This document shows positions 2,391 through 63,590 of a stretch of DNA of 64,000 nucleotides, piece by piece. A model generated the notes under the pieces. That model worked only from the letters and a program-made list of their open reading frames with translations, was not told the DNA's origin and searched no databases. The stretch is taken from assembly GCA_918797485.1 (NCBI GenBank), contig CAKKNE010000002.1, forward strand, positions 3,348,001 to 3,412,000, written 5' to 3'. The number at the start of each line of letters is the position of its first letter. The first letter of the stretch is position 1. A program made the position numbers and the translations under genes. Source of the stretch: Pelagomonas calceolata. Lineage: Eukaryota.

Positions 2391-2641
2391 GTTAACTTTA
2401 GTAATAGAGGTACTCCGCCGAGGCGGCCGCGCGGCGGTGGCGTCTGCACGAGCCCTGCTCTTCTTGCTGGTAGGTGGAAGCGCGAGTCATCCGGCTCTGT
2501 GCGAGGCGCGGGCTGCACATCGATCAGCAGATCTCACTTGCTAGTGTCTTACAGGCCGCTTGCGCGCGATCTAAACACGATCGGCGCGGCCCTTGGTTGA
2601 CGCCCCCCACGGGCTGGAGTTAAAACACGCGCCTTAGGCCC

Positions 2642-3193
2642 TCACGACGCGGGTTTCGAAGGACAGTTCTCCTTGAGCCAGTCGAGACCCTCGTACAACC
2701 CGTCGCCCGTCGTCGCGCAGCAGGCCTGGATGTACCACTTCCGCCCTCTCAAGGAAGACAGCTGGAGCGCCTCGGCGAGTTGCGCCGCGGGCGCCGCGTT
2801 CGGCAGGTCCTGCTTGTTCGCGTACACTAGTACCACAGCGTCCCGCAGCTCGAACTGGTCGAGCAACCCATGTAATTCGTCCTTCGCTTGTGAGAGTCGA
2901 TCCCGATCATTGCTATCAACAACAAAGATCACGCCCTGCGTGTCCGAGTAGTAGTGGCGCCAGAGCGGCCTTATTTTATCTTGCCCGCCAATGTCCCACA
3001 CCGTCAGCGTCAGATTGCCGTACTCGATGGCCTCGACGTTAAACCCGATGGTCGGGATCGTCGTCACGACCTCGCCCAGTTTGAGCTTGTAGAGGATGGT
3101 CGTCTTGCCCGCGGCGTCGAGGCCGACCATGCACAGTCTGGCATCGAGCTTCGTCCAGCCGTCGAGCCCCATGAGGGAGAAGAGCGCGCCCAT
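2642..3193 (-). CDS. ARF: ADP-ribosylation factor (ARF1-like small GTPase)
   Basis: [10 protein letters not shown]-loop, [34 protein letters not shown]-terminal MG myristoylation site. Confidence 0.95.
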
Positions 3194-3617
3194 GATTCGT
3201 GGGCACCGGTTTCGACGCTTGCAAGGACGCCGGCGCCGGCTTTCCAGCCAGGAGGATTTGTAATTACGAGGGTGCTACGCGGTCTGCACGGCTCGCCGCG
3301 GCGGCGGCGCTGCGGCTGCGGGTCGGCTGGCGACGGAAGATATCGCACGATGCTGCTTGCTGCAGTATCTCGAGCAGAGGCCGTGAAAAACCCAAAGCTG
3401 ACCAAGCTTAGCGTCTGTAAGACACTAGATTTTCAAGCATAGTATGCTTGGACCAAAACGCCGTGGTTTTGGCACATACGGACCACCAAGGGTCCTCCCT
3501 GCATCGCCTCGCTGCCGGAGCATCGCTCCGATTCGCTGCGGCGCACCGCTACGAGCCGGAGAGCCTGCCGCCAAAAGCAGAGCTAGCGCGCGACGCGCGT
3601 AGACACCAGCGGGACCC

Positions 3618-8953: not shown

Positions 8954-11440
8954 ATGGGCCCGCTCACGCCGCGCAACCCGCGCCTCCGCACGAAGTACCC
9001 GTACAACGACATGGTCTGGAAGAAGCTCGACCCGGACACGAAGGGCTTCGCGGAGATCAAGCAGGTCATAAAATATGCGGACGACGTCGAGATGTGCTGC
9101 CCGGGGTTAGTAGATAGGTTCCAAGAGGTCGCGAAGAACGGCAAGCTCACGAAGGACGCCTTCGATAATTATGGGAAGCCGACGGACCGCGCGAAGCATC
9201 GCGCCAAGCGGGCGAAGCGGCACGACCTCGGGGAGCTGCGGCAGCTCTTCGACACGATCGTGAAGGCCGGCGAGAAGGATATTAAATTGGCGGACCTCGT
9301 GCGGCACAAGCGCGAGGTGAACCGGATCTGTCCGGAGTTGATTACGGAGTTTAGTGACATCGACCAGGACAATAGTTGCAGCGTGAGCTGGGATGAATTA
9401 AGGGTCTTCGCCGGCGGCACGGACGACTGGCTCAAGTTCCAGTTGCAGAACATCATCGGGCTCGACGGGCTGAAGGACCAGATCCACCAGTTCCACCAGT
9501 CTATTAGTCTGGACAAGAAGAGGCAAGCTGCAGGCTTCGACGTGAAAGACGCGGGCGGCAAGTACCACATGATCTTCCAGGGGAACCCCGGGACGGGGAA
9601 AACGACCATGGGGCGCGTCGTGGCGGCGTTGCTCAAGCGCATAGGCATCACGCAGAGCGATCTGTTGGTGGAAGTGCAGCGGGATCAATTGGTAGCGGGA
9701 TACGTCGGCCAAACGGCCCCGAAGACGCAGGAGAAGATCGACGAGGCCTGTGCTGGGGTGCTTTTTGTGGATGAGGCGTACCGGCTGTCGCATGCTGTGT
9801 GGAAATCAAATTGTCGCGGCGCGTCTCCGCCACTGCTGAATCATGACCTTACGCCATCGACGCGACGCCACCTCAATGGCGTGGCGGTGTGGGTCTTACA
9901 CGACTCGATTCAGTCATCAGGACAGCGTCGTCGCCGAGAAATGACTTAGTGAAGAATTATGTGCACCCGACTCACTGGTTGATTTACCCACAGGTCGCAA
10001 GGTAGTAAATCGGGCAGCGACTACGGCAAGGAAGCTATTGAAACGCTCATGGGCGCGATGACCGAGCCGCCGGGCAAGGCGCCCGTCATGGTCTTCGCGG
10101 GCTATCCGAATGATATGGCTTCGTTCATGCAGGCGACTATGTGGAAATCAAATTTCGGGCGCCCCGCGCCATCGACGCAACGTGCTTTCCGTAGCTGCGT
10201 CTGCGCAATGGCGTGGCGATTCCGCGCCATCGACGCGACATTGTCCCCGTGGCCACGTCGGCTCGATGGCGTGGAGGCGCACAAAGGTCCACGCAATATT
10301 TCTCAGATAACCTAACTCACTGGTTGATTTCCACACAGGCAGGCGAATTCCGGGCTGTATCGACGCATCGCGTACACGTTCGACTTCGAGGACTACACGC
10401 CGTTAGATCTGGCGAAGATCCTGGGGAAGATGGCCCAGGGGAAGGGCTTCGGGCTGTCTGCCGACTTGACGTCAAACAATTTCGAGGTTTTGAGTAGGAT
10501 GATCGAGGAGGGCACGCTGCCCGAGGCGCGGGCCCTTATGAACGGCGGCATCTGCGAGCGCATCTTCACCTTCGCGAAACAATCATTGGATGGGCGGTGC
10601 CAGGCTTCCGGACAAGTAAGCGTGGAGATAACGGCGGAGGACATCACGATGGCAATGACACGCATCCCGCCGCCGCCGCGGCGCGACGACGGCGGCGACG
10701 ACGACGACGGCGGCGGCGGTGGTGGTGGCGGCGGCGGCGACGAGCGGCTGCGCCTCGAGCTGACGAACGTGAAGCAGCAGCTGATCCTCGTCAAACAGCA
10801 GCTGCGGACGGCGCGGGCCGACAGCAGCCGGTTGCGTGGCGAGCTGGACCGGACCAAGGCCCTCCTGGCCAGCCGTCCGGCCGCCCCGCCGCCCGCGGCC
10901 AGGGGCCCACAGGCTCCGCAGGCCCCGCAGGCCCCGCCCGCGAACCAGGCCCCTCCGGCGGGCGCGGGTCATGCCGCGGCGCGGGCGGGCGTGCCGGCCG
11001 GGGGCACGTGGCAAGTGCTCCTAGAGAGCGGCTGGGCGACGATCGACGCCGCCGGGCAGCACATCATGAACGGCGCCGTCGCGGCCGGGCAGACGAGCAT
11101 ACGGGACAAGATCGCCGGCCGCGAGTATTTTATCGACTTCGTCGCGAAGAAGCAGACGAACTGCCGGACCGGCAAGGCGCGGGACATCCGGTGCGCGCCC
11201 GCCGGCTCGGCGGTGCCGGCCTCCAAGCCGTCGGAAGCCGGCGGGATTTGGCAGGTGCTCTTGAACGACGGCTGGAAGGTCATGGACGCGCCGACGTCCG
11301 CCACGCTGAGCCAGGCGGCGAAGGCGGGGCAGACTACCGTCCAGCTCCGCCAGCGGGGCTACGACTACACCGTCGATCTCGCGGCCCTCACGCAGACGAA
11401 TCTGGCGACAAAAGCGGTACGGCAGATCAAGTTTGTCTAA
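8954..11440 (+). CDS. EF-hand + CbbX/SpoVK-like AAA+ ATPase + coiled coil + tandem WWE protein. Exons 8954-9786, 9994-10128, 10339-11440 (689 aa)
   Basis: EF-hand DQDNSCSVSWDE; HMIFQGNPGTGKTT Walker A; LVAGYVGQTAPKT; GVLFVDEAY Walker B. After removing two introners the frame reads DEAYRLSQGSKSGSDYGKEAIETL...VFAGY...FMQANSGLYRRIAYTFDFEDY. Two WWE-like repeats at the C-terminus. Confidence 0.88.
9795..9993 (+). mobile_element. Introner element 1 (non-autonomous TIR transposon forming intron 9787-9993, GT-AG)
   Basis: TIRs CTGTGTGGAAATCA (9795-9808) and TGATTTACCCACAG (9980-9993), 12/14 match. 8-bp TSD GTCGCATG / GTCGCAAG. Removal restores the AAA+ frame. Confidence 0.92.
10137..10338 (+). mobile_element. 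Introner element 2 (intron 10129-10338, GC-AG)
   Basis: TIRs CTATGTGGAAATCA (10137-10150) and TGATTTCCACACAG (10325-10338). Perfect 8-bp TSD GCAGGCGA at 10129-10136 and 10339-10346. Removal restores the frame. Confidence 0.93.
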
Positions 11441-11469
11441 GAATTGGAAAAAATAAAATAAGAACAACA

Positions 11470-12600: not shown

Positions 12601-12802
12601 GGTTGCTCAAGGACGGCGTGAAGCCGTCGCGACGTTTTGCAACGCGGTCTAGGGCGTGGTGTCGCACGCAGTCGCGTGTCAGTACCAGCTTTAGTTGTCC
12701 GTGCGGCCAAAGCTGCGCCGCGTGTCGTCCAATTTGCAATGGCATAATCACTAGCGACCGGTGAGACACTAGCAACGCAGCGAGTCCTAGCAAGCCCCTT
12801 AC

Positions 12803-13453: not shown

Positions 13454-13980
13454 CTGCGTTAGGGCTGCCCCGCGGGAGTTCTTGCCCGCTAACGGGCGGG
13501 AGAGGCGGAGGTCCTACGTTAACCCACAACGCTTGGGACGCTGTCGATGCCAAAAAACGCCGTCAATAGCGTGGCGCTAAGCGGCGTTGCCACGCGTTGG
13601 TCCAAGCTAGCGGCCGTAAGGCACTAGGAATCTCAGCTGAGCCGCAAAGGTGTAAGTAGCGCAAGCGTAACTGCACGCATCGCTCGCAAGCAAACGACGC
13701 TGTCGCCGCAGCGCTTGCCGGACCGTGTGGCTGAAACACTGCCTGCACCACTGCATCCTGTGCCTCGCCGTGTCCGCAGTAGTAGTCGCGCACGCGCCGT
13801 CCGGGGATTAGAAACTAGCAACTGTGTCAGGATTCGGAGCCAAGTCGGACCTAAGAGACCCGGCGCCGGCCGTGGCGAGAATTTGCTTCCGCCGTTTCTG
13901 AGGACGAGAGCCGGCGCAGCGCCGCACGAAACGCCCGCAGCAAGCGGTGCGTCACCTCTCGAAACGCGCAGGTCCGACGC

Positions 13981-14571: not shown

Positions 14572-14599
14572 TAGAGAACACATTTAACGAAGGGGATAG

Positions 14600-16077: not shown

Positions 16078-16393
16078 TGCTTTTATGCTTGCGGTAAACT
16101 TGCTCTGCGTCTTATACATTACAGCTTTTGCTGCCTCGTTTCACGTCTCTCTTGCTTGCTAGTGTCTTACAAACCGCTAGCTATTAAAGTCCCAACGTCT
16201 GCGGTGGACGCCGTGAGGCGCTGCTGCGCTGCTACGCGCGTTTCTACGCGCTTGCGCAGCGCCGCAGCAACCGCTGAGCACAGCTATACCAGCCTGCGCG
16301 GCCGCCGCGCGCCGCTTCGCCATAGAGCTTGAGCAAATTTATAAGCTTACTTCATCCCGCCTGGCGAGTTTAGCGCCGAGCCACCACCAAAGC

Positions 16394-18856: not shown

Positions 18857-18880
18857 TGCTAGTGTCTTACAGGCCGCTAG
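18857..18880 (+). promoter_or_regulatory. Recurrent intergenic motif TGCTAGTGTCTTACAGGCCGCTAG (consensus copy)
   Basis: Identical copy at 36202-36225. Near copies at 2539, 3408(-), 12751(-), 13607(-), 16157, 24664(-), 26144, 47295, 49366(-), 53276, 63271. Regulatory function is inferred. Confidence 0.7.
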
Positions 18881-19037
18881 CCACGCGAAGCCTAAACGCG
18901 CGGGGAGATTAACTAGCGTATCGAGTAACACACTAGCACTATTCACTCAGCCGCAAAACGCACGTAAAACCTCCGAAACCAATGATTTGGAGCCAAGCGG
19001 GCGTTAAGAAGCTAAGTGAGTTCATCGAAATGCTCAG

Positions 19038-24543: not shown

Positions 24544-24765
24544 GGCTGCAGGCTGGTGCAGCTGGGCTGGTGCTGCACGCAAAAGCACAGCCAACAAGAG
24601 TCGCTAATTGAACTATCGCTGCTGCAGCTCGGATTGGAGCACCCAGGCTGCTAAAATCATGGGCTAGCGGCCTGTAAAGACACTAGCAAACAGGCACGGG
24701 TTTCTCGCGCCGCCAGCCCAAAAAAGGCAGCCCCCACGCACGCCACCGCAGCAAGAGCAAGCACA

Positions 24766-25943: not shown

Positions 25944-26294
25944 CGCTGCGTCGGCGTCCCGCGCGCTCGACGCTGCCGCAGGGCCGGTGTTGCGCCTCAG
26001 CGCTTGCACAGCGATCGCGAAAACGTCGCTACGAGTTATGCGTATACTGTAGTCTCCTTGGTCCTGGGTGCAGCGGTGAGTTCTGCACTGCTGCGCTGCT
26101 TACAGTAAGCTGAGCTGAGCAGACGGGTTTGCTTGCTAGGTGCCTAGTGTCTTACAGGCCGCTAGCTGCAGGGCGCGGCGCGGGGGCTCATTTTAGCGTG
26201 CCAGGGGCGAAAAGGTGACAGGGACAACGCTGTTTGGGCTTAGTGGTACGCTGAGGCATAACCGAACAAGCGGTGCGGGCTAGCACGACACCTA

Positions 26295-28202: not shown

Positions 28203-28377
28203 GACTTGCAGCTAGGGGTCGGTCAGCAATGCTGCAGGATAGCAACCGCTGCTGCCTCTTGCAAGGCTGGTTGCTGCGACTCAGGAGATCGCACAGCCTC
28301 TTGCAACGCCTCCAGGTTGACTGCCCAGGCGAGTCGTCGCAATAACCTGGGCTAGCGGAGTGAGGCACTAGCGAGCT

Positions 28378-36054: not shown

Positions 36055-36394
36055 TTCTGGGGCGATTTCACTGCGGATTTCCGCTGTATGGCCGCCGCTA
36101 TGGGGCAGCTTGAGTTTGACGGGGCTGCGGGCAGCCCGGGTGCGTTTGGCGACGCGAAACGGTCGCTAGTGATAGTACCATCGTGCGGGGCACCCCCTGC
36201 TTGCTAGTGTCTTACAGGCCGCTAGCCAATCGCGCGTGGAAGCCGCGCCCCTGCAGACTAACCGCAGACAGGACAACTACGCGGACAACTACACGAGTAG
36301 ACCGCCGGGCCGACGCGGGCGAGTTCGAGGGCGAAGCGGCGCCGCGCGCGCGGCGGGGAGGAGGCCTTGTCATGTATGTTTAAGTTGAATTAAT

Positions 36395-46965: not shown

Positions 46966-47018
46966 CGAGTGTTTGTGTGACTCCCCAAGTATAAGTACGA
47001 TCACTGTGCTCGTGTCGT

Positions 47019-47241: not shown

Positions 47242-47461
47242 TCGCAGGGACTCGCACGCCCCCCCTCTTTTTTGGGACGACCCCCCGTCAGCTTTGCTAG
47301 TGTCTTACCCGCTAGCTGCCGTGGCCGCTCACAAGCTAAGCTAGCACTTGGCACTGCCGCAGACCTCTCGCAATTGCAAAAGGCAGCCGTGCCGGTCTGC
47401 GCACCTCGTCCCGAGGCTGCCCGCGACGAGTGGTTGCGCCAGGAACGCGCGCGTAGCAAAA

Positions 47462-49287: not shown

Positions 49288-49534
49288 GCCGCGCCGGTGC
49301 TGAAAACCCTCGCAGGATAAGACTGTGATTGACGGCTGGGCAGGGCCGATTGCAGCTCGGTGTCGCTAGCGTCCTGTAAGACACTAGCACAGCCCTAGTT
49401 GCAAAACATCAATAAGCTAGACACACTTTCGACATCACCACTGCTGCTGCGTCGTTGCAGCAGCAGCAGTAAAATGTATCTTTTCGCACTATTCGTCGCC
49501 ACCGTGAACGCCCTCAAAACCTATTACTACTAAA

Positions 49535-52617: not shown

Positions 52618-52706
52618 GTACACCTAGCGTCTCGTTACACGGCGCCTCGGCCCCTTGTGGGCCGGTCAATGTTCGCCGCGCACAGCTCGATCAGCCTCGA
52701 TGGCCT

Positions 52707-53180: not shown

Positions 53181-53320
53181 TTTTTTTACGCGCGGGCGGG
53201 CGCGTCGTTGGTGGAGCGGTACTGCGCTGCGCGGTGGCAGTAGCGACGGAGAGCGGTAACAGGCTTGGAGAGCTGGCTAGAGTCTTACAACCGCTAGATA
53301 ATCACGCTAGCGGCCTGTAA

Positions 53321-54489
53321 GCTTGTCATACTAGCCCGCACTGCCTACTAGCTCCGGCGCCGGCACGCCGGGTGCCTGGCCACCCAGCGTGCCGGCGTGG
53401 GCGGTGCGGCTGCCTGGGTGCCCCGTAAGGGCCGCGCCGCCGTCCGTGCCCCAAGGGCTGATGGGGGCAGGCTTTTTTCCCCCGGGCGATGCGACGGCGG
53501 TGCCGTGCGGCACTGCCCCATAAGCACGCAACCTCCGTACGTCGCCGCACGACGTCGTTGCTCAGCGCTTTTGCGATATGACGTTCGCCCAGAACCCACG
53601 AACGACTGACAAACAGGGTTTTTAAAAGTGATGAGGTTTGATTGTAAACGCGGGCGTCAAACGAGGCGCGCTCGACAAGGCGTAGACGAATAGCGAAACG
53701 GGCTCCACGACCAAAACCTGTTGGCACGGTCCTCCGCGGGGTTCGTGGGAACTGCGCGGACCGCTTGGTTGCTCGGGGAAACCCTCTATCTGTCACTTTT
53801 TCCCCTAAAAATGTTAATTCCTATTATTACTAAACGGGTACTCTTGGGGACAGACTTCGGCGAGCCATTTGTTACCCTTAGCCTACGAAGGCACAAAACC
53901 CCGTCTATGGGCCATCGACGCGAACCAGAGGAGTGCCCTGAGGCCGTGGGAGCGGCCGAAGAGTCGGGGTTTCTGCTCCCGGCGCGGCACCGCGCGCTGC
54001 GACGTTTTAAGTGCAAAAGCACACTTTTCTATTACCATGGAGCCTAATTGACGAGTCGAGGCAGCCTGGTGGTAAGTGCCGAGGCCGCACTTCATCCGTA
54101 GGTACGCCAATTGCCGCCCATTCACCGTCGCGTACGACACCGTGTCGTCGGCGACGTACCGCAGACGGTCGGCATGAGGTGTTGGGGCCTCAACGAAGGT
54201 TGGCGCCTCGGGGCACATCCATGAGACGGCCTCGGAGCGCGGGCATGCGCCGCGGACGGCCCATCTCGCGAAACGGGAGAGTATCGCTTCTGAGAGCCTG
54301 TGGTTTCAGGGTGCTCATGCTCGTCAATGCGGCCGCGGACTGCAACGCGGCAGCCCGCGCCATGGTCGGGACCACGGACGGGCCCGCACCGCCAATCCGC
54401 GCTCCAATCGACCGAATAGAGGCCGAGTATGCCCCCTGAGAGCACCCCGGCGTCATGAGAGCCAGCTAGTGCGGGCTAGTATGACAAGC
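53321..54489. mobile_element. Non-autonomous TIR element (~1.17 kb) inserted into the intergenic motif
   Basis: Perfect 22-bp TIRs GCTTGTCATACTAGCCCGCACT (53321-53342) and AGTGCGGGCTAGTATGACAAGC (54468-54489). Flanking direct repeat TGTAA. No transposase motif recognised inside. Confidence 0.88.
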
Positions 54490-54685
54490 TGTAAGACACT
54501 AGCAAGCATCACGCTGCCGCTTTACTTAGAACTCAGTTAAGGGCACAGGTACGCGCTATTCTCACCGGAGAGGTTCAAGATCTGTCCTCGCTGCCGCTGA
54601 TATACAACCGGGGCGCTTGGCTGGAAGAGCACAGCTAGGCGACCGCAGAGCGCTAGCACACGCACAGCGAGCAGAGCGACCAACC

Positions 54686-55570
54686 ATGGTGAAGATGAAG
54701 AAGGGCGACCGGGGGCGCCAGGCGTGGCACGACACGGTGTCGCAGCTGGCGCGCGAGACGGGCGCGGCCGTGCCGGGCAACTCGCCGCAGAAGCGCCGCG
54801 AGACGCGGAAGCGCGTCGCGAAGCAGACCAAGGCCGCGAGCCGCTGGATCGACGACGCGGGCCTCGACGCCCGAGACCTGACGGCCTGGGCGCGCGTCGA
54901 CGCCATGCTCGACGCGCCGAAGACGTCGCACCTCATCGCGCTCGACGCGGACGACAGCGACGGCGGCGAGTACCGCGAGGACTCGCACTCCGACGTCGAC
55001 ATGGACGAGGACGAGCGGCGGGCCGCGCGGCGCGCCAAGAAGAAGGACGCGCCGAAGAAGAGCCGCGAGCGCAAGGCCCCCACGAAACGCAAGAAGAAGC
55101 GGAACCCCGAGGAGGAGCGGCGGCGCCAGCGGCACCGCCAGCGCGTCCTGAGCCAGGTGCTGCTCGACGACTTCGCGCCGAGCCGCGGCGCGCCGGCGCC
55201 GCGGGGCGCGGACTACGTCGGCGCGGCGGCGCGCGCGCCGCGGCCCGCGCGCGCGCCGCACCGCGTCTGCGTCGTGACGGGCAAGGCCGCGAAGTATCGC
55301 GACGCGGCGACGAACCAGTTCTTCGCCAACGCCGACGCCGGCGCGCTGTTGCGGGAGAACCCGCCGCCCTGGCTGCGCCTCGGCAAGCACGGCAGCGCGT
55401 ACCACGAGGCCATGCTCCAGATCCGGAGCGAGCGCGAGGACGCGGGGGAATCGGCGAAGGCGACGGCGGCCGCGCCGCGCCTTAACACCGACGGATCGCC
55501 GCTCGCGCCGGGCCAGAAACCGGGGGACCCGGATCCTCCCGGATACTTCAGGGGGCGGAAGTTCGACTAG
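54686..55570 (+). CDS. SWR1/INO80-type chromatin-remodelling subunit-like protein (YL1 C-terminal domain)
   Basis: DYVGAAARAP...HRVCVVTGKAAKYRDAATNQFFAN is YL1_C-like; acidic/basic nuclear-type N-terminus. Confidence 0.7.
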   Translation: MVKMKKGDRGRQAWHDTVSQLARETGAAVPGNSPQKRRETRKRVAKQTKAASRWIDDAGLDARDLTAWARVDAMLDAPKTSHLIALDADDSDGGEYREDSHSDVDMDEDERRAARRAKKKDAPKKSRERKAPTKRKKKRNPEEERRRQRHRQRVLSQVLLDDFAPSRGAPAPRGADYVGAAARAPRPARAPHRVCVVTGKAAKYRDAATNQFFANADAGALLRENPPPWLRLGKHGSAYHEAMLQIRSEREDAGESAKATAAAPRLNTDGSPLAPGQKPGDPDPPGYFRGRKFD

Positions 55571-55597
55571 GGAGTAAGATTAGGACGTACAAAGATA

Positions 55598-58339
55598 TTA
55601 GATGCCGAGCATGAGCTCGGGCGGCGGCGGCGGGAAGCCCGGGTCGCCGACGAGGTCGTCCTCGAACCGGTCGTCGCCCGGCGCGTCGGCGCGGCACGAG
55701 TCGTAGGCCGCGCGCGCCGCGCGCGTGACCTCCGACAGCGAGCCGCGGTAGCCCCGCAGGGCGTCGTCGCGCGCCGCGAGCTCGGCGGCCAGGTCCCGCG
55801 CGCGGCGCGCGGCGTCGTCGCGCGCGGCCTCGGCGCGGCCCAGCGCGGCCGCGGCCTCGCGGGCCTGCGCCTCGAGCGCGCGGCGCAGCGCGGTCTCGTG
55901 CGCGGCGTCGGACGCGGCCAGGCCCCGCCGCAGCTGCGCCTCGACCTCGGGCCGGAGCGCCGCGCGCGCGGCCGCGGCGGCGCGGCGGGCCGCCGCCTCG
56001 CCGCGGGCGCGCTCGTCGTCGAGCCGCTGCCGGAGGCGCTCGACCTCGCCGCGCGCCGTCGTCACGGCGACGGCGTCGCCGCACCGCTTCTGGAAAAACG
56101 CGGCGGCGCCGGCGGCGCAGCGCGCCCGCGCCCGCGCGTTCGCCGCCGCCGCGAAGGCGTCGTCGACGCGGCGCGAGCGCCGCGCCGCCGCGCGCACGGC
56201 CGCGACCTCGGCCTTGCGCGCGTCGTCGCGCTTCCGGGCCACGCGCACCGCGCCCCGGAGCCGCTCGAGCTCCGCGGTCCCCGTCGCGGCCGTCTCGCGC
56301 CGCGCGGCCTCCGCCGCGTCGCGCGCGGCCGCCGCCGCGCCGTCGCGCGCGGCGGCGAGGTCGGCGCCGAGCCGCGCCGTCGCCGCCGCCGCTTCCTGGC
56401 GCGCCGCCACGACGTCGCCGCGGAGCCGCTCCAGCGCCGCGGTCGCGTCCCCGGTCGCCGCTTGCGACCGGGAGAGGGCGTGCTCGAGCTCGGCCTTGGC
56501 CGCCCGGAGGTCGAAGACCTGCTGTTCCGCCGCCGCGGCGCTCTCCCGGGCGCCCCGCGCGGCGCGGCGCGCCTCGTCCGCGTCCGAGCGGCCGCGCGCC
56601 GCCTCGGCGTCGCCCGCGCGCAGGCGGCGCGCGAGGTCGTCGCGCGCGGCCGTGACGGCGGTCAGGTCCTCCTCGGCGCGCCGCAGGGCCGCGCGCGACG
56701 CCTCGACGACCGCCGCGGCGGCCCGCCGGTCCTTGGCCTGGCGCGCGGCGTGCGCGTCCTCGGCCGCCGCCGCGCGGGCCCCGGCCGCCGCGCCCCGCGC
56801 CTCCGCGGCCGCTCGCATCGCGTCCGCCGCCGCCGCGCGGCCGTCCGCCTCGACGGCGCGCGCCTCCGCCGCCGCGGCGCGCGCCTCCGCCGCCGCGGCG
56901 GCCCGCTTCCCCGCCAGGAACTCGCCGTCCTCGCGGCGCGCGACCTCGCGCTGCCGCTCCATCGTGGCCTCGGCGGCGCGCTCGGCGGCGCGCGCGGCGT
57001 CGAGCGCCCGCTCCAAATCCTCGAGCCGCCCCCGGAGCGCTCCCCGGTCGCGGTCCGCCTCCGCGAGCCGCTCCCGCAGACTCACAGAGTCGCGCGCGGC
57101 GGCGTCCCGCTCGTTCTCGAGCAGCGCGTAGTCGGCCGCCGACTGGTCGAGCGCCTGCTGCGCCTCGGCCAGCTGCGCCTCGTGGAGCGCGTCGTGGTCC
57201 GCCCACCGCTGCGCGAGCTGCCGGTCCTTGTCGTCGTGCGCCGCGTCCCGCGCGCGCAGCTGGCGCTGGATCTGCTCCATGCGCCGCTGGACCGAGCGCT
57301 CGGCGTCGCGGTCGCGCGCCTTGACGAGCTCGGCGACGGCCTCCGTCCAGGTCCGCCGGTGCGCGCGCGCGCGGCGCTCGGCCTCGTCCAGGATCTCGCG
57401 CACCGCCAGGCCGTGCGCGCGGTCCCGCGCCGCGAGGAACGCCTCGAGCGCGGCGCCGTCGAGGCGGTACGCGGCCGAGAACGCCGCGCCGGCGGCCGCC
57501 ACGGCGTTGCGCCCCCGGACGGCGAGCCGGGCCGTCGCCTCGTCAGTCAAGCGCGGGGCCCGCCGCCGCCGCGCCTTGCGCGGCGACGCGCGCCAGGCGA
57601 GGCGCGGCTGGTCCTCCGTGAACGACGTCCGCGTCCGGATCACCTCGTCGGCCACGCCCTTCAGGGCCCGCTCGACGCACCGGAGGGCGGCGACCTCGGC
57701 CCGCGCCGCCGCCCGTCGGGACCTCCGGTCGCGGCGCTGCGCCTCGAGCCCCGCGTCGGCCGCCGCGCGGCGGAGGCGCTCGTTGTCGAGGTCCGCGCGC
57801 GCCGCGTGCGCCGCCGCGTCGCTCTTCAGGTCTTCGACGCGGCGCTGCAGGTCGTCCGCGCGCCGTCGGTGCTCGTCGCGCTCCCGCTCGAGGGCCTCCT
57901 CGCGCACGCGCCGCCCGTCCTCGTCGATGCTAAACTGGCGGTCGCGCGCGTCCGCGACGGCGCGCCGCACGGCCTCGAGCGTGCCGCGCGCGACGGGCGT
58001 GTCCGGCTCCATCGCCGCGAGCGCGCCGCCGCCGTCCCGGAAGTCGATCGGGCCGGGGGCCGCGGGCGTCGCCGTCGCCGCGTCGTGCGTGAACGCGGGC
58101 GTCGCCGTCGCCGCGTCGCGCCGCCCGCCAGGCGTCGAGGGCGTCGCCGGCGCCGCGTCGCGCCGCCCGCCCGTCGCGGTGGAGGGCGTCGCCGGTGCGG
58201 CGGCGTCGAACGGCCGCGCCGCGCGCGCCGACGTCGGCGTGGTCACCGCCTCGGTCGTCTCCCCCAGCCCGCCGGGCAGGAACTTGCGCAGGACGGCCGA
58301 GAAGGCGTCCACCTCGTCGCCGTCGCTGTCGCTGCTCAT
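55598..58339 (-). CDS. Long coiled-coil hypothetical protein
   Basis: A/R/E heptad-rich ORF from ATG 58339 (MSSDSDGDE); short internal DAAPATPST repeats. Confidence 0.7.
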   Translation of the reverse strand: MSSDSDGDEVDAFSAVLRKFLPGGLGETTEAVTTPTSARAARPFDAAAPATPSTATGGRRDAAPATPSTPGGRRDAATATPAFTHDAATATPAAPGPIDFRDGGGALAAMEPDTPVARGTLEAVRRAVADARDRQFSIDEDGRRVREEALERERDEHRRRADDLQRRVEDLKSDAAAHAARADLDNERLRRAAADAGLEAQRRDRRSRRAAARAEVAALRCVERALKGVADEVIRTRTSFTEDQPRLAWRASPRKARRRRAPRLTDEATARLAVRGRNAVAAAGAAFSAAYRLDGAALEAFLAARDRAHGLAVREILDEAERRARAHRRTWTEAVAELVKARDRDAERSVQRRMEQIQRQLRARDAAHDDKDRQLAQRWADHDALHEAQLAEAQQALDQSAADYALLENERDAAARDSVSLRERLAEADRDRGALRGRLEDLERALDAARAAERAAEATMERQREVARREDGEFLAGKRAAAAAEARAAAAEARAVEADGRAAAADAMRAAAEARGAAAGARAAAAEDAHAARQAKDRRAAAAVVEASRAALRRAEEDLTAVTAARDDLARRLRAGDAEAARGRSDADEARRAARGARESAAAAEQQVFDLRAAKAELEHALSRSQAATGDATAALERLRGDVVAARQEAAAATARLGADLAAARDGAAAAARDAAEAARRETAATGTAELERLRGAVRVARKRDDARKAEVAAVRAAARRSRRVDDAFAAAANARARARCAAGAAAFFQKRCGDAVAVTTARGEVERLRQRLDDERARGEAAARRAAAAARAALRPEVEAQLRRGLAASDAAHETALRRALEAQAREAAAALGRAEAARDDAARRARDLAAELAARDDALRGYRGSLSEVTRAARAAYDSCRADAPGDDRFEDDLVGDPGFPPPPPELMLGI

Positions 58340-58994
58340 GGCTTGGTGTGAGTGGTGCCTTGACTGGTGCCTGAGCCGTGCGGTCGTGCGCAGCGGCGGC
58401 GCAGTGCGACGCGGACACTTCGATAGCTGCGGTACGCGGCCGCGGCGCGTCGTAGCGGTCGGCTGCCTTTTGCGGGCTGCCTCTCGACAATACGCTGCAT
58501 GCATGGGAACAGGCGAGGCGGCGGCGTCAAGCGTCCGGTCGCTGTGACGCGACGTAGGGGTGCTCTTGCATCGGATGCTTCCCGGGACGTGTCATGAGTC
58601 ATGAGTCTAGTGTCTATCACCTTAAGGCTTTATATTGGCCTCACACGCGAGTCTTTGCTCTACCGTGCGTACATCCGTCGCGCCGGCCGCCAGTGCATCG
58701 CCCTAACCAAACGAAAAGCGTGTCGTGCGTCGTTGCTGTGGGCGAAACGCCGACGAGGTGGCGCTGTTTGGAGCAACCTGACGAGCACTAAGGCTGTAGA
58801 GTCTAAGACAAAGCTAAAGCTAAATCACTAGCGATCGAGCCCCGGGCCTCCTGAGCTCGCGGGTTTCTACGTCGACAGCCATTACGGCGCCCACTGCCTG
58901 AAAATTCGCCCATTCCTGCAAAAGCAAGGAATTGAGAACTTCGCTAAAGTGTGCACAGCACCCGTCCTCAAGCGCGCGCGAGCGCTGCACAATC

Positions 58995-60311
58995 ATGTCC
59001 TACGATGCCATCCAAGGCAGCCTCGACGTGTCCCTGCCGCGCCACCAAAAGCCGAGCTTCCTCGCGGTCGGCTACATGGTCTTACTGGGAGACACGGTCC
59101 GCGGCATCTTCTTCCCGACGCTCTGGCCCCTGGTCTCGAGCTTCGGCGGCACGCGCGCGGCGCAGGGCGTGGTGGTGGCCGCCTTCTCCATGGGCCGCGT
59201 GCTCGTGAGCCCGTCCTACGGCGCCTACTCGACGAAGCACGGCTACCGCAAAATACTCGTTTTTGCGCACTGCCTCATCGTGCTCGGCGCGCTGCTGTAC
59301 ACGCGCGTCTGGAACGTGCCCTCGCTCGTGTGCGCGCAGCTGATCCTGGGCTTCGGCTGCGGCACGCTGGGCGTGACGCGCGCGTACTTCGCCGAGAGCG
59401 TGCCGCGGGACCAGCGCACGGTCTGGCTCGGGCGCGTGACGGCGGCGCAGTACTGCGGCCTCACGTGCACGTCGTTCCTCGGCAGCCTGCTGGCACGGAC
59501 GGGCGAGCGGCTCGAAAAAGACGCGTCCCTCGCGTGGCTCAACATCTCTCCTTTGACGTGCTCCGCCTACGCGGTGCTGCTCATGGCCCTCGTCGCCCTG
59601 CTCTTGCTCCAGGCCCCGAGCTTTTACGACTTCGTGCCGGCGGACCGCCAGGCGGGTGCGACCGTGGCGCGCGAGGACGGCGTCCAGACGGACGACGATC
59701 GAGCGCACTTTAGGCTGGTCGTCGTCGGCCTCGTGCTGAATATCATTACGAAGGGCAGCATCGGCTGCTACGAGACGCTCGGCGTGAGCTACGCGCAGGC
59801 CAACCTGAAGATGGACGGCCCGACGGTGGGTTATTATGTTGCGGCGTGCGGCGTGCTGGGCGTCGCGTTCTTGCTGTCGTTCAAGCAATTGGGGAGGCTC
59901 TTTGATGATGTGGAACTCATTCTGTACGGCATCGGGGTCATGGTCCTGAGCTGTTTATTGATGGTGCGGAAGTTTAGTGAAGATATCATCGGCGACGACG
60001 ACCATGATGTGGACGCGTTCGCGGCCTGGCTGACGGCCATCGTGGGCATGTACGGCATTGGGTATCCCATCGGACACACGGCGGTCATCGGCTGGTTCTC
60101 AAAGGCCATGAAGCACCGGCCGCAGGGCATGCTCATGGGCCTCTTCGCGTCGGCGGGGTCGGTCGCGCGCATCGTCTTCCCGATCTGCTCGGGCGTCGCG
60201 TCGGACCTCTGGGGGCCGGACGTGGTCTTCGCGTGCCTGGCGGCGCTGCTCGGCGCGACGCTCGTCATTTTGGTGGTGAAGCGCCGCGCGTTCCGGGAGG
60301 CGATAGCCTAA
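58995..60311 (+). CDS. MFS transporter (MFSD8-like)
   Basis: About 12 hydrophobic segments; FPTLWPLV, AAFSMGR, GTLGVTRAY, QGMLMGLFASAGSVARIVFPI. Confidence 0.85.
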   Translation: MSYDAIQGSLDVSLPRHQKPSFLAVGYMVLLGDTVRGIFFPTLWPLVSSFGGTRAAQGVVVAAFSMGRVLVSPSYGAYSTKHGYRKILVFAHCLIVLGALLYTRVWNVPSLVCAQLILGFGCGTLGVTRAYFAESVPRDQRTVWLGRVTAAQYCGLTCTSFLGSLLARTGERLEKDASLAWLNISPLTCSAYAVLLMALVALLLLQAPSFYDFVPADRQAGATVAREDGVQTDDDRAHFRLVVVGLVLNIITKGSIGCYETLGVSYAQANLKMDGPTVGYYVAACGVLGVAFLLSFKQLGRLFDDVELILYGIGVMVLSCLLMVRKFSEDIIGDDDHDVDAFAAWLTAIVGMYGIGYPIGHTAVIGWFSKAMKHRPQGMLMGLFASAGSVARIVFPICSGVASDLWGPDVVFACLAALLGATLVILVVKRRAFREAIA

Positions 60312-60328
60312 TCTTATTTTGGTAAGTA

Positions 60329-60889
60329 CTACTTGGCGAGGGCGAAGGTCATCTGGCCGACCTCGACGGCCAAATTGCCGTCGACGTAGGCCCGGCCCGT
60401 CGCCTTGGCGATGCCGAACTTGGCCTTCCAGTTCGTGATCTCGACCTCCATAACTAACGTGTCGCCGGGCACGACGGGCCTCTTCCACTTGACGCCGTCG
60501 ACGCCCGCGAAGAAGAAGACGGCGCCCGGCTCGGCGCCCTCCATCTGCAAACACACGACGCCCGCGAGCTGCGCCAACGCCTCGATCTGCATGACGCCCG
60601 GCATGATCGGGCGGTCCGGGAAGTGGCCCGTGAACTGGGGCTCGTTGAAGGTCACGCACTTGACGCCCACGGCGCTCTTGCCCGCCTCGTATTCGATAAC
60701 CTTGTCCACGAGCGCGAAGGGGTAGCGGTGCGGCAGGATCTTCTGCACCTCCTCGAGCGAGAAGATCGTCTCCGTGCCCTCCGTCTTCGCCGAGATCTCC
60801 TGGGCCGTGGCCTGGAGCCGTGGTGGGGCGCTGCGGTGGGGCCCTACGAAGGCATGGGCCGCGCAGCAGAGCGCGAGGACGAGGCGCAT
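60329..60889 (-). CDS. fabZ: Plastid 3-hydroxyacyl-ACP dehydratase
   Basis: LPHRYPFALVDKV, NEPQFTGHFP..PIMPGVMQIEALAQ, PVVPGD; bipartite leader with AHA-F cleavage motif. Confidence 0.95.
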   Translation of the reverse strand: MRLVLALCCAAHAFVGPHRSAPPRLQATAQEISAKTEGTETIFSLEEVQKILPHRYPFALVDKVIEYEAGKSAVGVKCVTFNEPQFTGHFPDRPIMPGVMQIEALAQLAGVVCLQMEGAEPGAVFFFAGVDGVKWKRPVVPGDTLVMEVEITNWKAKFGIAKATGRAYVDGNLAVEVGQMTFALAK

Positions 60890-61190
60890 GATCCGCTGCA
60901 GTTGCACGTTATGGTGCAATCAGTGATTGCACGAGGACTAAGCACACAGCCCTAGTTCAGCCAGTGATTGCACGCTCGGCTAAGCTCCTGAGAGACAGCC
61001 TTAGTGTACAGCCATCACACATCGCCGCAAGGTATCGGTATGGTACCTTATACCTCGGTGGTAGGGGGTCGGGAGCCTGCAAACATCAAGCGCCCTAGCG
61101 TGCTTTGACACACTAGTTTTTCAGGGCCGAGACAGCTCCCTACAATTCGCGACCAGAAAAACAACGCCGCGAGCAACCGGGACATATTAC

Positions 61191-61649
61191 TTAGGCGGCT
61201 ATCCTCTTGGGCGGCGCGCCCTTCGCCTGGCCCATGAGCCGCGACGTCTCGCCGAGGCGCTCGTGCGCGGCCTTGGCGACGTGCGTGTGCGCCGTGTCGT
61301 ACTCGACGCAGGCCTTGAAGCACCGCGCCGCCCGCGGCAGCAGGCCGTCCTCGAGGCACAGCAGGCCGCAGTCCAGCGCGACCGCGGCGCGGTCGACGCC
61401 GCCCTCCCGGATGCCGATGGCCTCGGTCCAGGCCCGCCGCGCGTCGGCGCGCCGCTGGGCGCGCGAGAGCTCGTCGATGTTTGCCAGTGTGAGGAAGATG
61501 CGCCCTTGGTTGCGCAGCACCACGAACCGCGTGCGGCTGTCGAGCTCCATGCACAGCGCCTCCTCGTAGAGCGGCAGGGCCTCCGTAAAGCGCCCCTTGG
61601 CGTACTCGCGGTTCGCTTCCAAGATGAGGCCGCCGGCGCGCACCGCCAT
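61191..61649 (-). CDS. TPR-like repeat protein
   Basis: ANREYAKGRFTEALPLYEEAL and similar helical repeats. Confidence 0.65.
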   Translation of the reverse strand: MAVRAGGLILEANREYAKGRFTEALPLYEEALCMELDSRTRFVVLRNQGRIFLTLANIDELSRAQRRADARRAWTEAIGIREGGVDRAAVALDCGLLCLEDGLLPRAARCFKACVEYDTAHTHVAKAAHERLGETSRLMGQAKGAPPKRIAA

Positions 61650-61878
61650 CAAGGGTGCTAGGGCTGCCTGAGCCAAAGCCTAGGGGCACTGGGGCTCCTG
61701 GAGACGCTCTGGGAGCTGCCCGGGCTGCCACTGGCGTGAGAGTGGCTTTGCTCGTAGCGCTCACACAAGCGCGAGAGCAGGCTAGTAGCTTGGAGCCGCG
61801 GGGCAAATCGGCGAGTAGGTATCTCCGAGACAGATTAAGTTTAGAGGTTCGGGACCGGGGGAGGGGAGGAATGCCTCT

Positions 61879-63147
61879 TCACGCGTCGAGCGCGACGAGG
61901 ATGACGGACACGGTAGCCCGCGCGCGGGCGCCGTGGTCTTCGAGCGTCGCGCGGTCGCGCTCCGTCAGGCAGATCGCGCGGCGCCGGTGGGCCATGTCCG
62001 TCGCGAAGAGCGCCGCGTCCGCGCGCGCGTCGAGCTCGAAGGCCTGGCGCGCCAGAATGACCTGCGCGGAGATCCGGTCGTTTCCCCGTGGCTGCGTCTG
62101 TTCGATGGCGTGGACCTGGACACAGAGACAGACGGCGAGGCGCGCCTCGGTGGACAGCGGCAGCACGATGTCGCGGCGGTCGTAGGCGCGCTCGAGGTCG
62201 ACGCGGACCGTCGCCGCGCCCGCCGCGGCGGCGACGGCGACGCGCTCCGCGTAGGCCTCGGGCGTCCAGCAGGCGCGGCCGTCGACGGCCCGGAGCACCC
62301 AGCAGCCGTCGGCGCGGAGCGGCGAGCGCGCGAGCGCCGGGATGACATTGCGGACGACGGCCTCGCCGCGCGCGATCTCGGCGTCGAACGCGCGGCTCGC
62401 GAGCCGAAGGCGCGCGGCGTCGCGCGGCGCGAGGTCGAAGCCGTGCGCGTCGCCGGCGGCCGCGGCCGCGGCCGCGAACGCGCCGATGAAGACGCCGTCC
62501 GTCACGACGACGCCGGCCCGCGCCGCGTCGGCCTCGGTCGCGAGCGCGTGGAGCTCGGTCCGCCGCGGCTCGACGAAACGCGAACCGACGGCCAGCGTCG
62601 CGGCGCGCCGCGCGACGGTCGCCGCGCCGCGGACGGCGGCGAGGTCGACCGGCGCCGCCTGCGGCGCGTCGGCGAGGCGCGTTCCGCGCCGCTTGAGCAC
62701 GACGAGCGTGCAGCGCTCCGTGTCCGCGTGGAGCAGCCGGAGCGCCGCGCCCGGGGCGACCGCGGCCCGCCGCCGCGGCTCCGCGAGGCGCCGCCAGGCC
62801 ACGTAGTCGCAGAGGCCGCGGCCGTTGAGCGCGCGGTCGGCGCGCGTCGCGGCCGGCGCCGTCGCCTCGAAGCGGCCGAGGTCGGCCGCGCTGAGCAGCG
62901 GGAGCACCTTGTGCGTGAAGAGCGACGTGGCGCCGGCGGCGTGGATGCGGCCCAGCGCGCCGGCGCGGAACGCCGGCGCCGCGCCGACGCGGCGCGGTCG
63001 TCGTTTGCGCTGCGGTGGTCCGCGCGGCGTCGGCAGGGCCGCGACCAGTGCGGAGAATGGCCGGGCCGCGTCCCAGGCGGCCTCGTCGCGATTGCTCGTG
63101 GCATTGCTTCCGCCGTCTTCTATGACATTTGCGCCGCGCGTCGACAT
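61879..63147 (-). CDS. Hypothetical protein (F-box-like segment) with a probable 54-bp intron at 62062-62115
   Basis: ATG 63147; LFTHKVLPLLSAADLGRFEAT is F-box-like; Ala/Arg-rich coding bias. Confidence 0.55.
   Translation of the reverse strand: MSTRGANVIEDGGSNATSNRDEAAWDAARPFSALVAALPTPRGPPQRKRRPRRVGAAPAFRAGALGRIHAAGATSLFTHKVLPLLSAADLGRFEATAPAATRADRALNGRGLCDYVAWRRLAEPRRRAAVAPGAALRLLHADTERCTLVVLKRRGTRLADAPQAAPVDLAAVRGAATVARRAATLAVGSRFVEPRRTELHALATEADAARAGVVVTDGVFIGAFAAAAAAAGDAHGFDLAPRDAARLRLASRAFDAEIARGEAVVRNVIPALARSPLRADGCWVLRAVDGRACWTPEAYAERVAVAAAAGAATVRVDLERAYDRRDIVLPLSTEARLAVCLCVQVHAIEQTQPRGNDRISAQVILARQAFELDARADAALFATDMAHRRRAICLTERDRATLEDHGARARATVSVILVALDA
62062..62115 (-). mobile_element. 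Probable eroded introner-derived mini-intron
   Basis: Minus strand CAG|GTCCACGCCATCGAAC...GGATCTCCGCGCAG|GTC. End resembles the introner TIR (10/13); 62086-62113 matches 10189-10216 at 24/28. Confidence 0.6.
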
Positions 63148-63590
63148 ACTGTTCGCTGGTGCAGCTATGAGCAACTGGTAGCGGATTAGTGCTCTTCCTT
63201 TTTTTTTACCCCTCACTTCCTTCTTCTTTACCTAGAGCTACCCTTCACCTCCTTCTTCGCATTAGACACTTGCTAGTGTCTTACAAGCGCTAGAGATAAG
63301 TTTTGTAGTTAGTTTCCGCCGCGAGGCTACGCGCGCGGGCACAAATCGACGCCACACGTTCGACAGCGCTCGCCGCCGCGTCTGCCCCGTTAACGGTACG
63401 AGTTTTGCGCCACTAGCATTTAAGCTGTTTTACGCCGCTCGTCAGAACGCTGTTCTTCGCCGCTCGTCCTCTACGCCCCCGTAAAAACGTTTCTCTCGCT
63501 CCCCGCGTTCCGATGAGCACCTTTTCAAAACCATCCGAGCCCACCTTGCCGCGAAACTGCCGCCGACACTAGGACCGTTTCGGACCCGCT

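Follow-up and report, generated by a model that had tools for sequence, protein, structure and literature searches.

The question raised by this locus is why one long sequence should recur beside genes of unrelated function: as a promoter element, as a boundary between transcription units, as the target of a single regulator, or as debris of a mobile element. The window, i.e., the whole stretch of 64 kb that was analysed, is a compact, GC-rich portion of the Pelagomonas calceolata genome, across which a 24-base motif recurs with the consensus TGCTAGTGTCTTACAGGCCGCTAG. The motif is bipartite and consists of box 1 (CTAGTGTCTTAC), a spacer of about 1–7 nt and box 2 (CGCTAG); the flanking consensus extends the boxes (GCTTG...CT) to roughly 22–27 informative positions in all, and the termini form a short inverted repeat, GCTAG...CTAGC. 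The CTAG-N(11–15)-CTAG layout that had been predicted was borne out, with a slightly wider range of N(11–16).

The abundance of the motif was far above chance. Seventeen copies were found in 64 kb at up to 6 edits from the consensus, a density of approximately 1 copy per 4 kb. Matches to the 24-mer with no more than 3 mismatches numbered 7 in the window and 0 in any of 100 dinucleotide shuffles, and 7-mers derived from the motif were in the top 40 by frequency within the intergenic portion of the window (15.7 kb). No third conserved box was present in the flanks, where conservation did not extend past positions −5 and +2 relative to the boxes; the sole further flank signal was a diffuse enrichment of TTTT runs within 30 nt after box 2. 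The search at up to 6 edits recovered the sites of the original prediction, with the start of one corrected from 26144 to 26142 and the halves of the split copy at 53307 and 54485, and the degenerate copy at 61095 was recovered by eye. The two copies described as degenerate, 28352(−) and 61095(−), were both present, the latter at unchanged length. One copy beyond the earlier list was also found (18913–18938, −). The copies were as follows.

2539..2562, + strand: motif copy with 1 mismatch and box 2 CGCTTG; the sole copy in a convergent (3'-3') spacer.
3408..3431, − strand: motif copy with a spacer one base shorter and box 2 CGCTAA; divergent, between Arf GTPase and ABC-F genes.
12751..12774, − strand: motif copy in a tandem spacer upstream of a DnaJ gene; end of an X3 contig at 12730, 21 bp from box 2.
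13607..13629, − strand: motif copy in the middle of a divergent promoter; a contig terminates at 13590 (17 bp beyond box 2), and RNA reads of the + strand have their 5' ends at 13655 (26 bp beyond box 1).
16157..16180, + strand: motif copy, divergent, upstream of a serine carboxypeptidase gene; X3 contig end at 16109, 48 bp away.
18857..18880, + strand: motif copy with perfect consensus upstream of a WD40 gene; RNA 5' ends at 18831 and 18840 (17–26 bp).
18913..18938, − strand: second, diverged motif copy with a 6-nt spacer, pointing towards the copy at 18857.
24664..24688, − strand: motif copy with a T inserted in box 1; divergent; RNA 5' ends of the + strand at 24726/24727 (38 bp).
26142..26165, + strand: motif copy in the middle of a divergent promoter between genes for an L23-domain protein and a sulfotransferase-family protein; − strand RNA 5' ends at 26093/26104, 38–49 bp from box 1, and a + strand contig that begins at 26181 (16 bp beyond box 2).
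28352..28374, − strand: degenerate motif copy with a 2-nt spacer upstream of an epimerase gene; RNA 5' ends at 28315/28321 (31–37 bp); bordered directly on the 5' side by a 78-nt repeat array.
36202..36225, + strand: motif copy with perfect consensus in a tandem spacer; ATG at 36054, 148 bp away.
47295..47315, + strand: motif copy with a 1-nt spacer, tandem; RNA 5' ends of the + strand at 47347 (32 bp beyond box 2); 78-nt repeat array on its 5' side.
49366..49389, − strand: motif copy with 1 mismatch, divergent, upstream of an ACT-domain gene; contig ends at 49345 (X3) and 49360 (X4), 6–21 bp from box 2.
53276..53297, + strand: motif copy with a 3-nt spacer, pointed at a now-split copy 9 bp away.
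53307..53321, − strand: box-2 half of the split copy, a consensus copy interrupted by an inserted element.
54489..54507, − strand: box-1 half of the split copy, still 37 bp from the RNA 5' end of a gene; + strand RNA 5' ends at 54542 and X3 contig start at 54544.
61095..61116, − strand: degenerate motif copy with differences at approximately 5 of 22 positions; the contig of a FabA gene ends 116 bp downstream.
63271..63293, + strand: motif copy with a 3-nt spacer; the ATG at 63147 follows after 124 bp; no RNA 5' end among the clusters listed.

Placement was analysed against a gene map of our own construction, based on open reading frames and GC3. All box-1 matches with up to 2 mismatches (17/17) lay outside coding ORFs, though ORF-genes fill 75% of the window, in agreement with the earlier statement that coding sequences contain no copies. 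Divergent spacers were occupied in 7 of 14 cases, tandem spacers in 5 of 14 and convergent spacers in 1 of 14, so that the motif was present in 12 of the 28 promoter-bearing spacers (about 43%) and absent from the other 16. Spacers in general measured approximately 200–500 bp; convergent genes nearly abut, and most convergent spacers are too short for a copy. The copy at 2539 had been singled out as an exception between convergent genes, and its spacer was indeed convergent. A distance of about 80–215 bp to the start codon, taken as the first ATG in frame, held for most copies (78–215 bp) and failed for two, namely 16157 (38 bp) and the step from 13629 to the ATG at 13981 (352 bp); the ATG 38 bp from 16157 lies beyond the reach of the RNA contig. 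Pfam domains of the neighbouring genes (Arf, ABC-F, DnaJ, CFA20, carboxypeptidase, WD40, L23, sulfotransferase, epimerase, ACT and YL1) were without a common function, as had been noted from the sequence. Two closely spaced convergent pairs of motifs were observed, 18857/18913 and 53276/53307. The window also carries an introner-like intron; this feature, like its GC content and gene density, matches P. calceolata.

A scan of marine metagenomes yielded 125 further distinct instances with unrelated flanks. They came from 124 loci that look like further loci from this organism or from very close ones, and these showed no overlap with the window beyond small repeats. Adjacent coding-like ORFs turned a 5' end towards the motif on 78 sides and a 3' end on 36; the 30 instances called on both sides comprised 11 divergent, 17 tandem and 2 convergent arrangements, and just 2 of the 125 instances fell inside a coding-like ORF. 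The gene lay on the box-1 side in 38 cases and on the box-2 side in 40, with a median distance to the ATG of approximately 150 bp. This even split (38 vs. 40), together with the 7 of 14 divergent spacers of the window, is in line with copies in either orientation and often in divergent promoters. At two homologous promoters (L016 and L114, both chosen for exact boxes), the motif formed a conserved island amid diverged non-coding DNA, which may weakly support its conservation; the pair may be paralogues or strains. A conserved block that contains CACGTG and is distinct from the motif adjoins it in both. Viral contigs gave 0 matches to the pattern, thus showing no sign of a virus-borne element, and an Rfam scan of the window returned no family at gathering score, indicating that the motif corresponds to neither an RNA gene nor an RNA element of a known kind.

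RNA 5' ends were derived from ordinary stranded poly(A) RNA-seq reads and from the ends of transcriptome contigs rather than from cap-selected RNA. Rows marked as ends in the table of RNA reads were taken as RNA 5' ends because 10 of 11 clusters outside the inserted element precede an ATG and because the rows marked as begins match 3' ends. Among the 13 clusters listed, which are the best-supported rows of a longer list, 7 lay 17–38 bp from a copy, compared to an expected 16% for starts placed anywhere within promoter-bearing spacers (binomial p = 0.002). The first stretch contributed 5 of its 6 listed clusters (18840, 26104, 28321, 13655 and 24726) and the second 2 of 7 (47347 and 54542); the second stretch alone was not significant (p = 0.27). 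Contig ends agreed with this picture, falling 6–54 bp outside the motif at 12730, 13590, 16109, 18810, 26181, 28298, 49345/49360 and 54544. Assembly breaks induced by a repeat would instead have placed such ends inside the motif. Overall, approximately 18–60 bp (median about 37) separated the centre of the motif from the RNA 5' ends and contig ends mapped downstream of it, and the true starts may be nearer to the motif by some bases than the mapped ends. Two promoters had 5' ends on both sides of the motif (13590/13655 and 26104/26181). In 12 promoters inspected, no TATA-like run was found between the motif and the 5' end.

Some promoters without the motif were well expressed (20129, 58843/58854 and 61746), and the motif is therefore not required for initiation. 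The gene at 23866–24543(−) beside copy 24664 was nearly silent, with a depth of about 0.2–1.3, and presence of the motif is no guarantee of expression. Genes with and without the motif showed no obvious difference in expression in depth bins, the sample being small and the bins coarse. Deeper contigs from X5, a run labelled as RNA by guess, crossed motif copies (11562–13012 and 23855–27882), which reflects either RNA read-through of some kind or DNA within that run.

Taken together, these observations make it probable that the motif is a promoter element close to the transcription start site and independent of orientation, serving as the site of a putative sequence-specific factor that sets the start of RNA polymerase II. 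The general promoter element proposed originally gained support from the RNA 5' ends at 17–38 bp, from the occupancy of 12 of 28 promoter-bearing vs. 1 of 14 convergent spacers and from the unrelated functions of the genes nearby. The motif would act as DNA and not as RNA, and would be bound by a protein; this putative factor would open the promoter and fix the start of RNA polymerase II on one or both sides, so that the motif would nucleate initiation at a TATA-like distance rather than merely mark a boundary. The variable spacer might, as a guess, reflect two DNA-binding modules with a flexible connection between them, an arrangement present in Myb-repeat or zinc-finger proteins. A bolder version, which we regard as possible but rather doubtful, would make the motif the main core-promoter determinant of a pelagophyte that is abundant worldwide, at which a lineage-specific factor directs bidirectional Pol II initiation at a TATA-like distance for about 40% of genes; its copies, numbering in the thousands, would have been seeded by a mobile element, of which the 78-nt repeat beside four of them is perhaps a trace, and then exapted. 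If this were true, a long sequence-specific "address" would replace the logic of TATA and Inr.

The main competitor assigns the motif to the borders of transcription units: as a boundary, insulator or roadblock, its bound factor would separate units, stop read-through and fix a nucleosome-free gap, with initiation specified elsewhere. Such a role could coexist with that of a promoter element. It would suit a motif that is independent of orientation and sits between units in tandem and divergent spacers alike, in a genome region where spacers span just 200–500 bp or so and convergent genes almost touch; the copy at 2539 and 2 of the 30 metagenome copies between 3' ends, the silent gene beside copy 24664 and the close convergent pairs (18857/18913 and 53276/53307) point the same way. 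The tight spacing of 17–38 bp to listed 5' ends on either side is, however, what positioning of initiation predicts, and only 1 of 14 convergent spacers holds a copy, though most are too short to hold one. We therefore consider a boundary function by itself unlikely. An ordinary transcription factor that targets a large set of genes, e.g., for light, cell cycle or nutrient responses, would account for the presence of the motif in just 43% or so of promoter spacers and for a length and specificity that resemble the site of a dedicated factor, and the CACGTG block beside the motif in L016 and L114 could suggest combinatorial control. A regulon of this kind seems improbable, since the neighbouring genes lack a common function, one copy in about 4 kb is very frequent for a specific regulon, and a distal regulator would not usually keep so short and constant a spacing from 5' ends. 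Two further candidates were set aside: a replication-origin consensus, because a copy every 4 kb would be far too dense, and tRNA-type A and B boxes (extra TFIIIC sites), whose consensus does not appear to fit the motif.

The remaining explanation is that the copies are functionless, either footprints or termini of a tiny transposon or debris of a longer element that targets open promoter DNA. Spread of a motif of approximately 27 positions to possibly thousands of copies genome-wide, a figure extrapolated from 17 per 64 kb, would be hard to achieve via point mutation and hints at copy-and-paste. The inverted ends GCTAG...CTAGC fit a relic of this type, and members of a 78-nt repeat family directly adjoin the motif, on its 5' side, at four independent loci (28378–28586 and 47023–47232 in the window, and L008 and L078). 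A transposon with terminal inverted repeats is in fact inserted within one motif copy: the split copy predicted at 53307/54490 proved real, with an otherwise perfect consensus across the insertion. The inserted element (53322–54488, 1167 bp) ends in inverted repeats of 21 bp that match perfectly and is accompanied by a duplication of 7 bp, CTGTAAG; no second copy was present in the DNA examined. Against a relic, 113 instances showed no excess of target-site duplications for k = 3–8 at any of 64 boundary offsets, the best excess of direct repeats being at k = 2 (18 vs. 10.2 of 113), and shared flank sequence was limited to 9 pairs among 226 flanks. The spacer varies in length and sequence while the boxes are exact, the pattern of selection on two contact sites, and a relic would not keep so regular a spacing from RNA 5' ends. 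At 24 bp, the motif is also smaller than any mobile element known to us, which counts against such an origin. The suggested remnant of a tiny mobile element therefore found no favour, lacking target-site duplications and almost all common flanks and having a variable internal spacer, and we judge functionless debris very improbable; copies of mobile origin that were exapted later are conceivable. Miniature inverted-repeat elements (MITEs) resemble the motif in having very many short copies near genes and short inverted ends; the motif differs from them in its 24-bp size and variable internal length and in having no target-site duplications, common body or common flanks.

If the motif positions initiation, it would provide a simple rule by which promoters and start sites can be annotated from sequence in one of the ocean's most numerous eukaryotes, a compact and possibly bidirectional promoter part for pelagophyte genetic tools, and a handle for fishing out its binding factor. 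It also poses an evolutionary question, namely how a motif with more than 20 informative positions spread to about four in ten promoter spacers.

The impression that this is not a described element agreed with our literature searches. No description of the motif was found, including in the main texts of work on P. calceolata; term look-ups in the main texts of PMC9481584, PMC13284251, PMC12054182 and bioRxiv 10.1101/2025.04.21.649811 gave none, and the words motif, promoter and intergenic were absent from the main text of the P. calceolata genome paper. Searches on motif strings returned unrelated primer coincidences alone among the matches listed. With regard to known core-promoter elements, the motif occupies a position comparable to that of a TATA box, and no TATA-like run towards the start was seen in the motif promoters inspected; it is unlike a TATA box in containing GC, in its length of 24 bp and in having starts on both sides, and TBP binding is not expected from its sequence. 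Identity with a TATA box was rejected because the consensus lacks a stretch like TATAWAWR, the usual form of that element. The oomycete core promoter elements INR (YCAYTYY), FPR and DPEP (SAASMMS) are reported to lie at or after the start site with an orientation bias, each in a minority of genes (13%, 18%, 7% and 8%) (PMC3599244). They would share with the motif the character of a lineage-specific core-promoter motif in a TATA-less stramenopile setting; identity with them was rejected on the basis of the description given there, as the motif differs in sequence, is long, lies upstream of 5' ends and has an orientation ratio of 38:40.

The downstream genes encode proteins and the window holds no Rfam family, so the motif was not taken for the proximal sequence element (PSE) of snRNA genes or for another non-coding-RNA promoter. 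The PSE is an upstream element of approximately 17–21 bp that selects the start at a fixed distance in TATA-less Pol II promoters, and its reader, SNAPc, contains multiple Myb repeats; by analogy, SNAPc offers a plausible precedent for the reading of a bipartite site of 24 bp. Long promoter motifs common to unrelated genes are known in animals and yeasts, in far smaller fractions of promoters, and none of them is known to combine two boxes with a flexible spacer. General factors with promoter-proximal sites at housekeeping-type and bidirectional promoters include ZNF143/Staf in vertebrates, Motif 1, DRE and BEAF-32 in Drosophila, and Reb1, Abf1 and Rap1 in yeast. The CGCG element, TCTCGCGAGA, is of this type and is reported to drive divergent start sites (PMC6192621). 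The motif resembles all of these in being specific, in being common to many unrelated genes at tens of bases upstream of the start, and in occurring at TATA-less promoters in either orientation and frequently at divergent gene pairs, whereas it differs in its unrelated sequence, its greater length and its bipartite structure with a variable spacer. It also sits nearer to the start site than the general-factor sites of yeast, and its share of about four in ten promoter spacers is far above the shares known for general-factor elements.

The 24-mer TGCTAGTGTCTTACAGGCCGCTAG matched the 64-kb window seven times at ≤3 mismatches, and not once in any of 100 dinucleotide-preserving shuffles. At ≤6 edits, 17 sites were obtained, which included every site of the original prediction and one absent from it; a degenerate copy was also seen by eye:

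18913–18938, − strand, additional motif copy (≤6-edit search)
61095–61116, − strand, degenerate motif copy

Alignment of the window copies revealed a bipartite motif consisting of box 1 (CTAGTGTCTTAC), a spacer of 1–6 nt (canonically AGGC), and box 2 (CGCTAG), with no relation among the flanks of 60 nt on each side. Earlier, no copy had been noticed inside a coding sequence, and this held in our ORF/GC3-based gene map: 17 of 17 box-1 matches (≤2 mismatches) avoided the ORF-genes and lay in the remaining 25% of the window. Motif-derived 7-mers ranked among the 40 commonest of the window's intergenic DNA. The occurrence of the motif by spacer type was as follows:

Divergent spacers: motif in 7 of 14
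Tandem spacers: motif in 5 of 14
Convergent spacers: motif in 1 of 14

Most convergent spacers were too short for a copy; the one at 2539, previously singled out as an exception, indeed occupied the longest of them and had a mutated box 2. Pfam domains of the adjoining genes in the window were unrelated (Arf, ABC-F, DnaJ, CFA20, serine carboxypeptidase, WD40, ribosomal L23, sulfotransferase, epimerase, ACT, and YL1).

The window (GC content 62–74%) was occupied for 75% by 43 gene-like ORFs with a strong GC3 > GC1 > GC2 pattern, and RNA showed two introns, including the following:

15287–15483, 197-nt intron of the serine carboxypeptidase gene, joint backed by reads and contigs

Read depth over it was extreme, as for a multi-copy sequence, and numerous variant letters and loose ends were seen, as in a repeated intron of the introner type. 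GC content, gene density, and this introner-like intron agreed with the Pelagomonas calceolata genome as described in PMC9481584 (63% GC, 16,667 genes, 0.45 introns per gene, introner-like introns of ~210 bp), suggesting an origin of the window in this species or a close relative. Convergent gene pairs lay 2–17 bp apart or overlapped by 9 bp, so close that the 3′ untranslated regions of the two genes, on opposite strands, must overlap. Near-abutting convergent junctions were:

20786–20792
25635–25638
27281–27285
33965–33973
60311–60329

Raw reads of two public stranded poly(A) runs, together with transcriptome contigs, were mapped over 10001–30000 and 44001–64000. The strand columns showed the first mate to be antisense to the RNA. 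The 'end' rows of the read-end table were taken as RNA 5′ ends, since all but one cluster outside an inserted 1167-bp element lay upstream of an ATG and several 'begin' rows lay just past stop codons. In 10001–30000, five of the six listed 5′-end clusters were situated 17–38 bp from a motif copy:

18831/18840, RNA 5′ end; motif copy 18857–18880
26093/26104, RNA 5′ end; motif copy 26142–26165
28315/28321, RNA 5′ end; motif copy 28352–28374
13655, RNA 5′ end; motif copy 13607–13629
24726/24727, RNA 5′ end; motif copy 24664–24688

The sixth (20129) was without a motif and had a TATATATAT run upstream. In 44001–64000, two of the seven listed clusters (the first two below) were near a copy:

47347, RNA 5′ end, 32 bp from motif copy 47295–47315
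54542, RNA 5′ end, 37 bp from the box-1 half of a split copy
Two clusters within the inserted element, at distances of 56 and 62 bp from the halves of the split motif
58843, 61746, and 49855, RNA 5′-end clusters far from every motif copy

For both stretches together, 7 of 13 listed clusters were ≤50 bp from the motif vs. 16% expected for starts placed anywhere within promoter-bearing spacers (binomial p = 0.002); for 44001–64000 alone the association was not significant (p = 0.27). Transcriptome contigs stopped 6–54 bp outside motif copies (at 12730, 13590, 16109, 18810, 26181, 28298, 49345/49360, and 54544). Contigs broken in assembly by a repeat would be expected to stop within the motif instead. 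At two promoters, 5′ ends flanked one copy on both sides (13590/13655 and 26104/26181), the divergent starts being ~65–77 bp apart, and the distance from motif centre to 5′ ends or contig ends was ~18–60 bp (median ~37). No TATA-like run was found between motif and 5′ end in the 12 promoters inspected. Contigs of X5, a deeper sequencing run labelled RNA by guess only, crossed motif copies (11562–13012 and 23855–27882), which may reflect read-through RNA or DNA in X5 and weakens the strict form of the statement that the motif is never transcribed.

The split copy reported earlier proved to be real, being a consensus motif interrupted at its exact middle, and excision in silico restored a perfect motif:

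53322–54488, inserted 1167-bp element with perfect 21-bp terminal inverted repeats and 7-bp target duplication CTGTAAG

The element looks like a non-autonomous DNA transposon; it contained no long ORF and was transcribed both ways (+ RNA 53377–53803, depth ~330; − RNA 54427–54069). Many variant letters in its reads indicated a multi-copy family, and no further copies were found within the DNA examined. The motif core (e.g., window 18866–18874) resembles splice signals, acceptor-like as TTACAG/G and donor-like on the opposite strand as CT/GTAAGA, which may be coincidental; the target duplication is the same string as the donor-like CTGTAAG.

Scanning of marine-metagenome contigs with the pattern box 1–N(1–7)–box 2 yielded at least 124 loci with 125 distinct instances, and scanning of viral contigs yielded none. 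The listed loci did not overlap the window apart from small repeats. The 125 listed instances comprised 64 different spacers of 2–6 nt, most commonly AGGC (26) and ATGC (10), and beyond the boxes conservation extended only over GCTTG, preceding box 1, and CT, following box 2. By a simple GC-by-codon-position rule, which gave no call on either side in 40 of the 125, the motif was faced by the 5′ end of an adjoining coding-like ORF on 78 sides and by a 3′ end on 36; the 30 listed instances with both sides called were 11 divergent, 17 tandem, and 2 convergent. The motif lay inside a coding-like ORF in 2 of 125. Orientation bias was absent (genes on the box-1 side 38, box-2 side 40), with the first ATG at a median of ~150 bp on either side. 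TTTT runs were enriched on the motif strand over the first 30 nt past box 2 (a total of 58 starts across three 10-nt bins vs. 0–9 per bin further out), at no fixed position. L016 and L114, two metagenome loci forming one homologous promoter pair (coding parts ~93% alike, estimated from alignment), carried the motif as a conserved island amid diverged non-coding DNA, its spacer differing by a one-base indel; as both were selected for exact boxes, this conservation is weak support. Roughly 60 bp away from the motif, the two loci had another stretch of conserved non-coding DNA in common, CGTTTGCGCTTGACAATTGTCT...CCACGTGGG, whose core is CACGTG (L016:1400–1460, L114:200–260).

A promoter element is the probable reading of the motif, given its placement at 5′ ends in both orientations, in divergent and tandem spacers and beside unrelated genes: it directly precedes RNA 5′ ends and is not part of the mature RNA. 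A putative sequence-specific factor would bind it, open the promoter, and fix where transcription starts, to one side or to both, at a TATA-box-like distance; exact boxes around a free spacer suggest two contact sites, possibly read by flexibly linked DNA-binding modules. The motif is not necessary, as 16 of 28 promoter spacers lacked a copy and the strong promoters 58843/58854 and 61746 work without it, nor sufficient, as the ORF-gene 23866–24543 (−), with copy 24664 on its 5′ side, was nearly silent. Poly(A) RNA depth was ~0.2–1.3 over this gene and ~40 over its divergent neighbour. In the motif-less divergent promoter 58640–58890, 5′ ends (58843/58844, −) and a contig start (58854, +) were ~10 bp apart; many variant letters and loose ends indicate that this region is probably another repeat, and a box-1-like string occurred at 58607–58618.

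Most data are also compatible with an insulator or roadblock element in a very compact genome, which we consider rather unlikely and which may coexist with a promoter role. The site of a specific regulon is improbable in view of the functions of the motif genes and the copy density. The earlier suggestion of a tiny mobile element remnant was not borne out as a pure relic: the listed metagenome instances showed no target-site duplication for k ≥ 3 at any boundary offset, and sequence was shared in just 9 flank pairs among 226 flanks, making a pure transposon relic very improbable. Four independent loci had, directly 5′ of the motif, a repeat unit of ~78 nt (start GGCTCAGGCTAGTTACGTCGC, C-rich middle, 2–3 tandem copies), at distances varying from 3 to 80 bp:

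Window 28378–28586
Window 47023–47232
L008:1230–1320, metagenome locus
L078, − strand, metagenome locus, just 5′ of the motif

This repeat may be what is left of a vehicle by which the motif was carried, or it could be an element targeting motif-bound DNA.

Regarding the proposed promoter element, no description came up in the papers searched for the motif strings and for pelagophyte promoter motifs. Among known elements, it comes nearest to general-factor sites, which are promoter-proximal and serve TATA-less promoters, many of them bidirectional; ZNF143, Drosophila Motif 1/DRE/BEAF-32, and yeast Reb1/Abf1 sites are examples. The vertebrate CGCG element (PMC6192621) is a further site of this kind to which the motif can be likened. 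The motif resembles the TATA box and the snRNA proximal element in lying at a fixed distance upstream; its sequence does not fit any of these known classes. The oomycete INR/FPR/DPEP elements, as described in PMC3599244, are unlike it in sequence, position, and orientation bias. We rate the motif as a putative lineage-specific promoter element, unusual in its length, bipartite form, and share of promoters.
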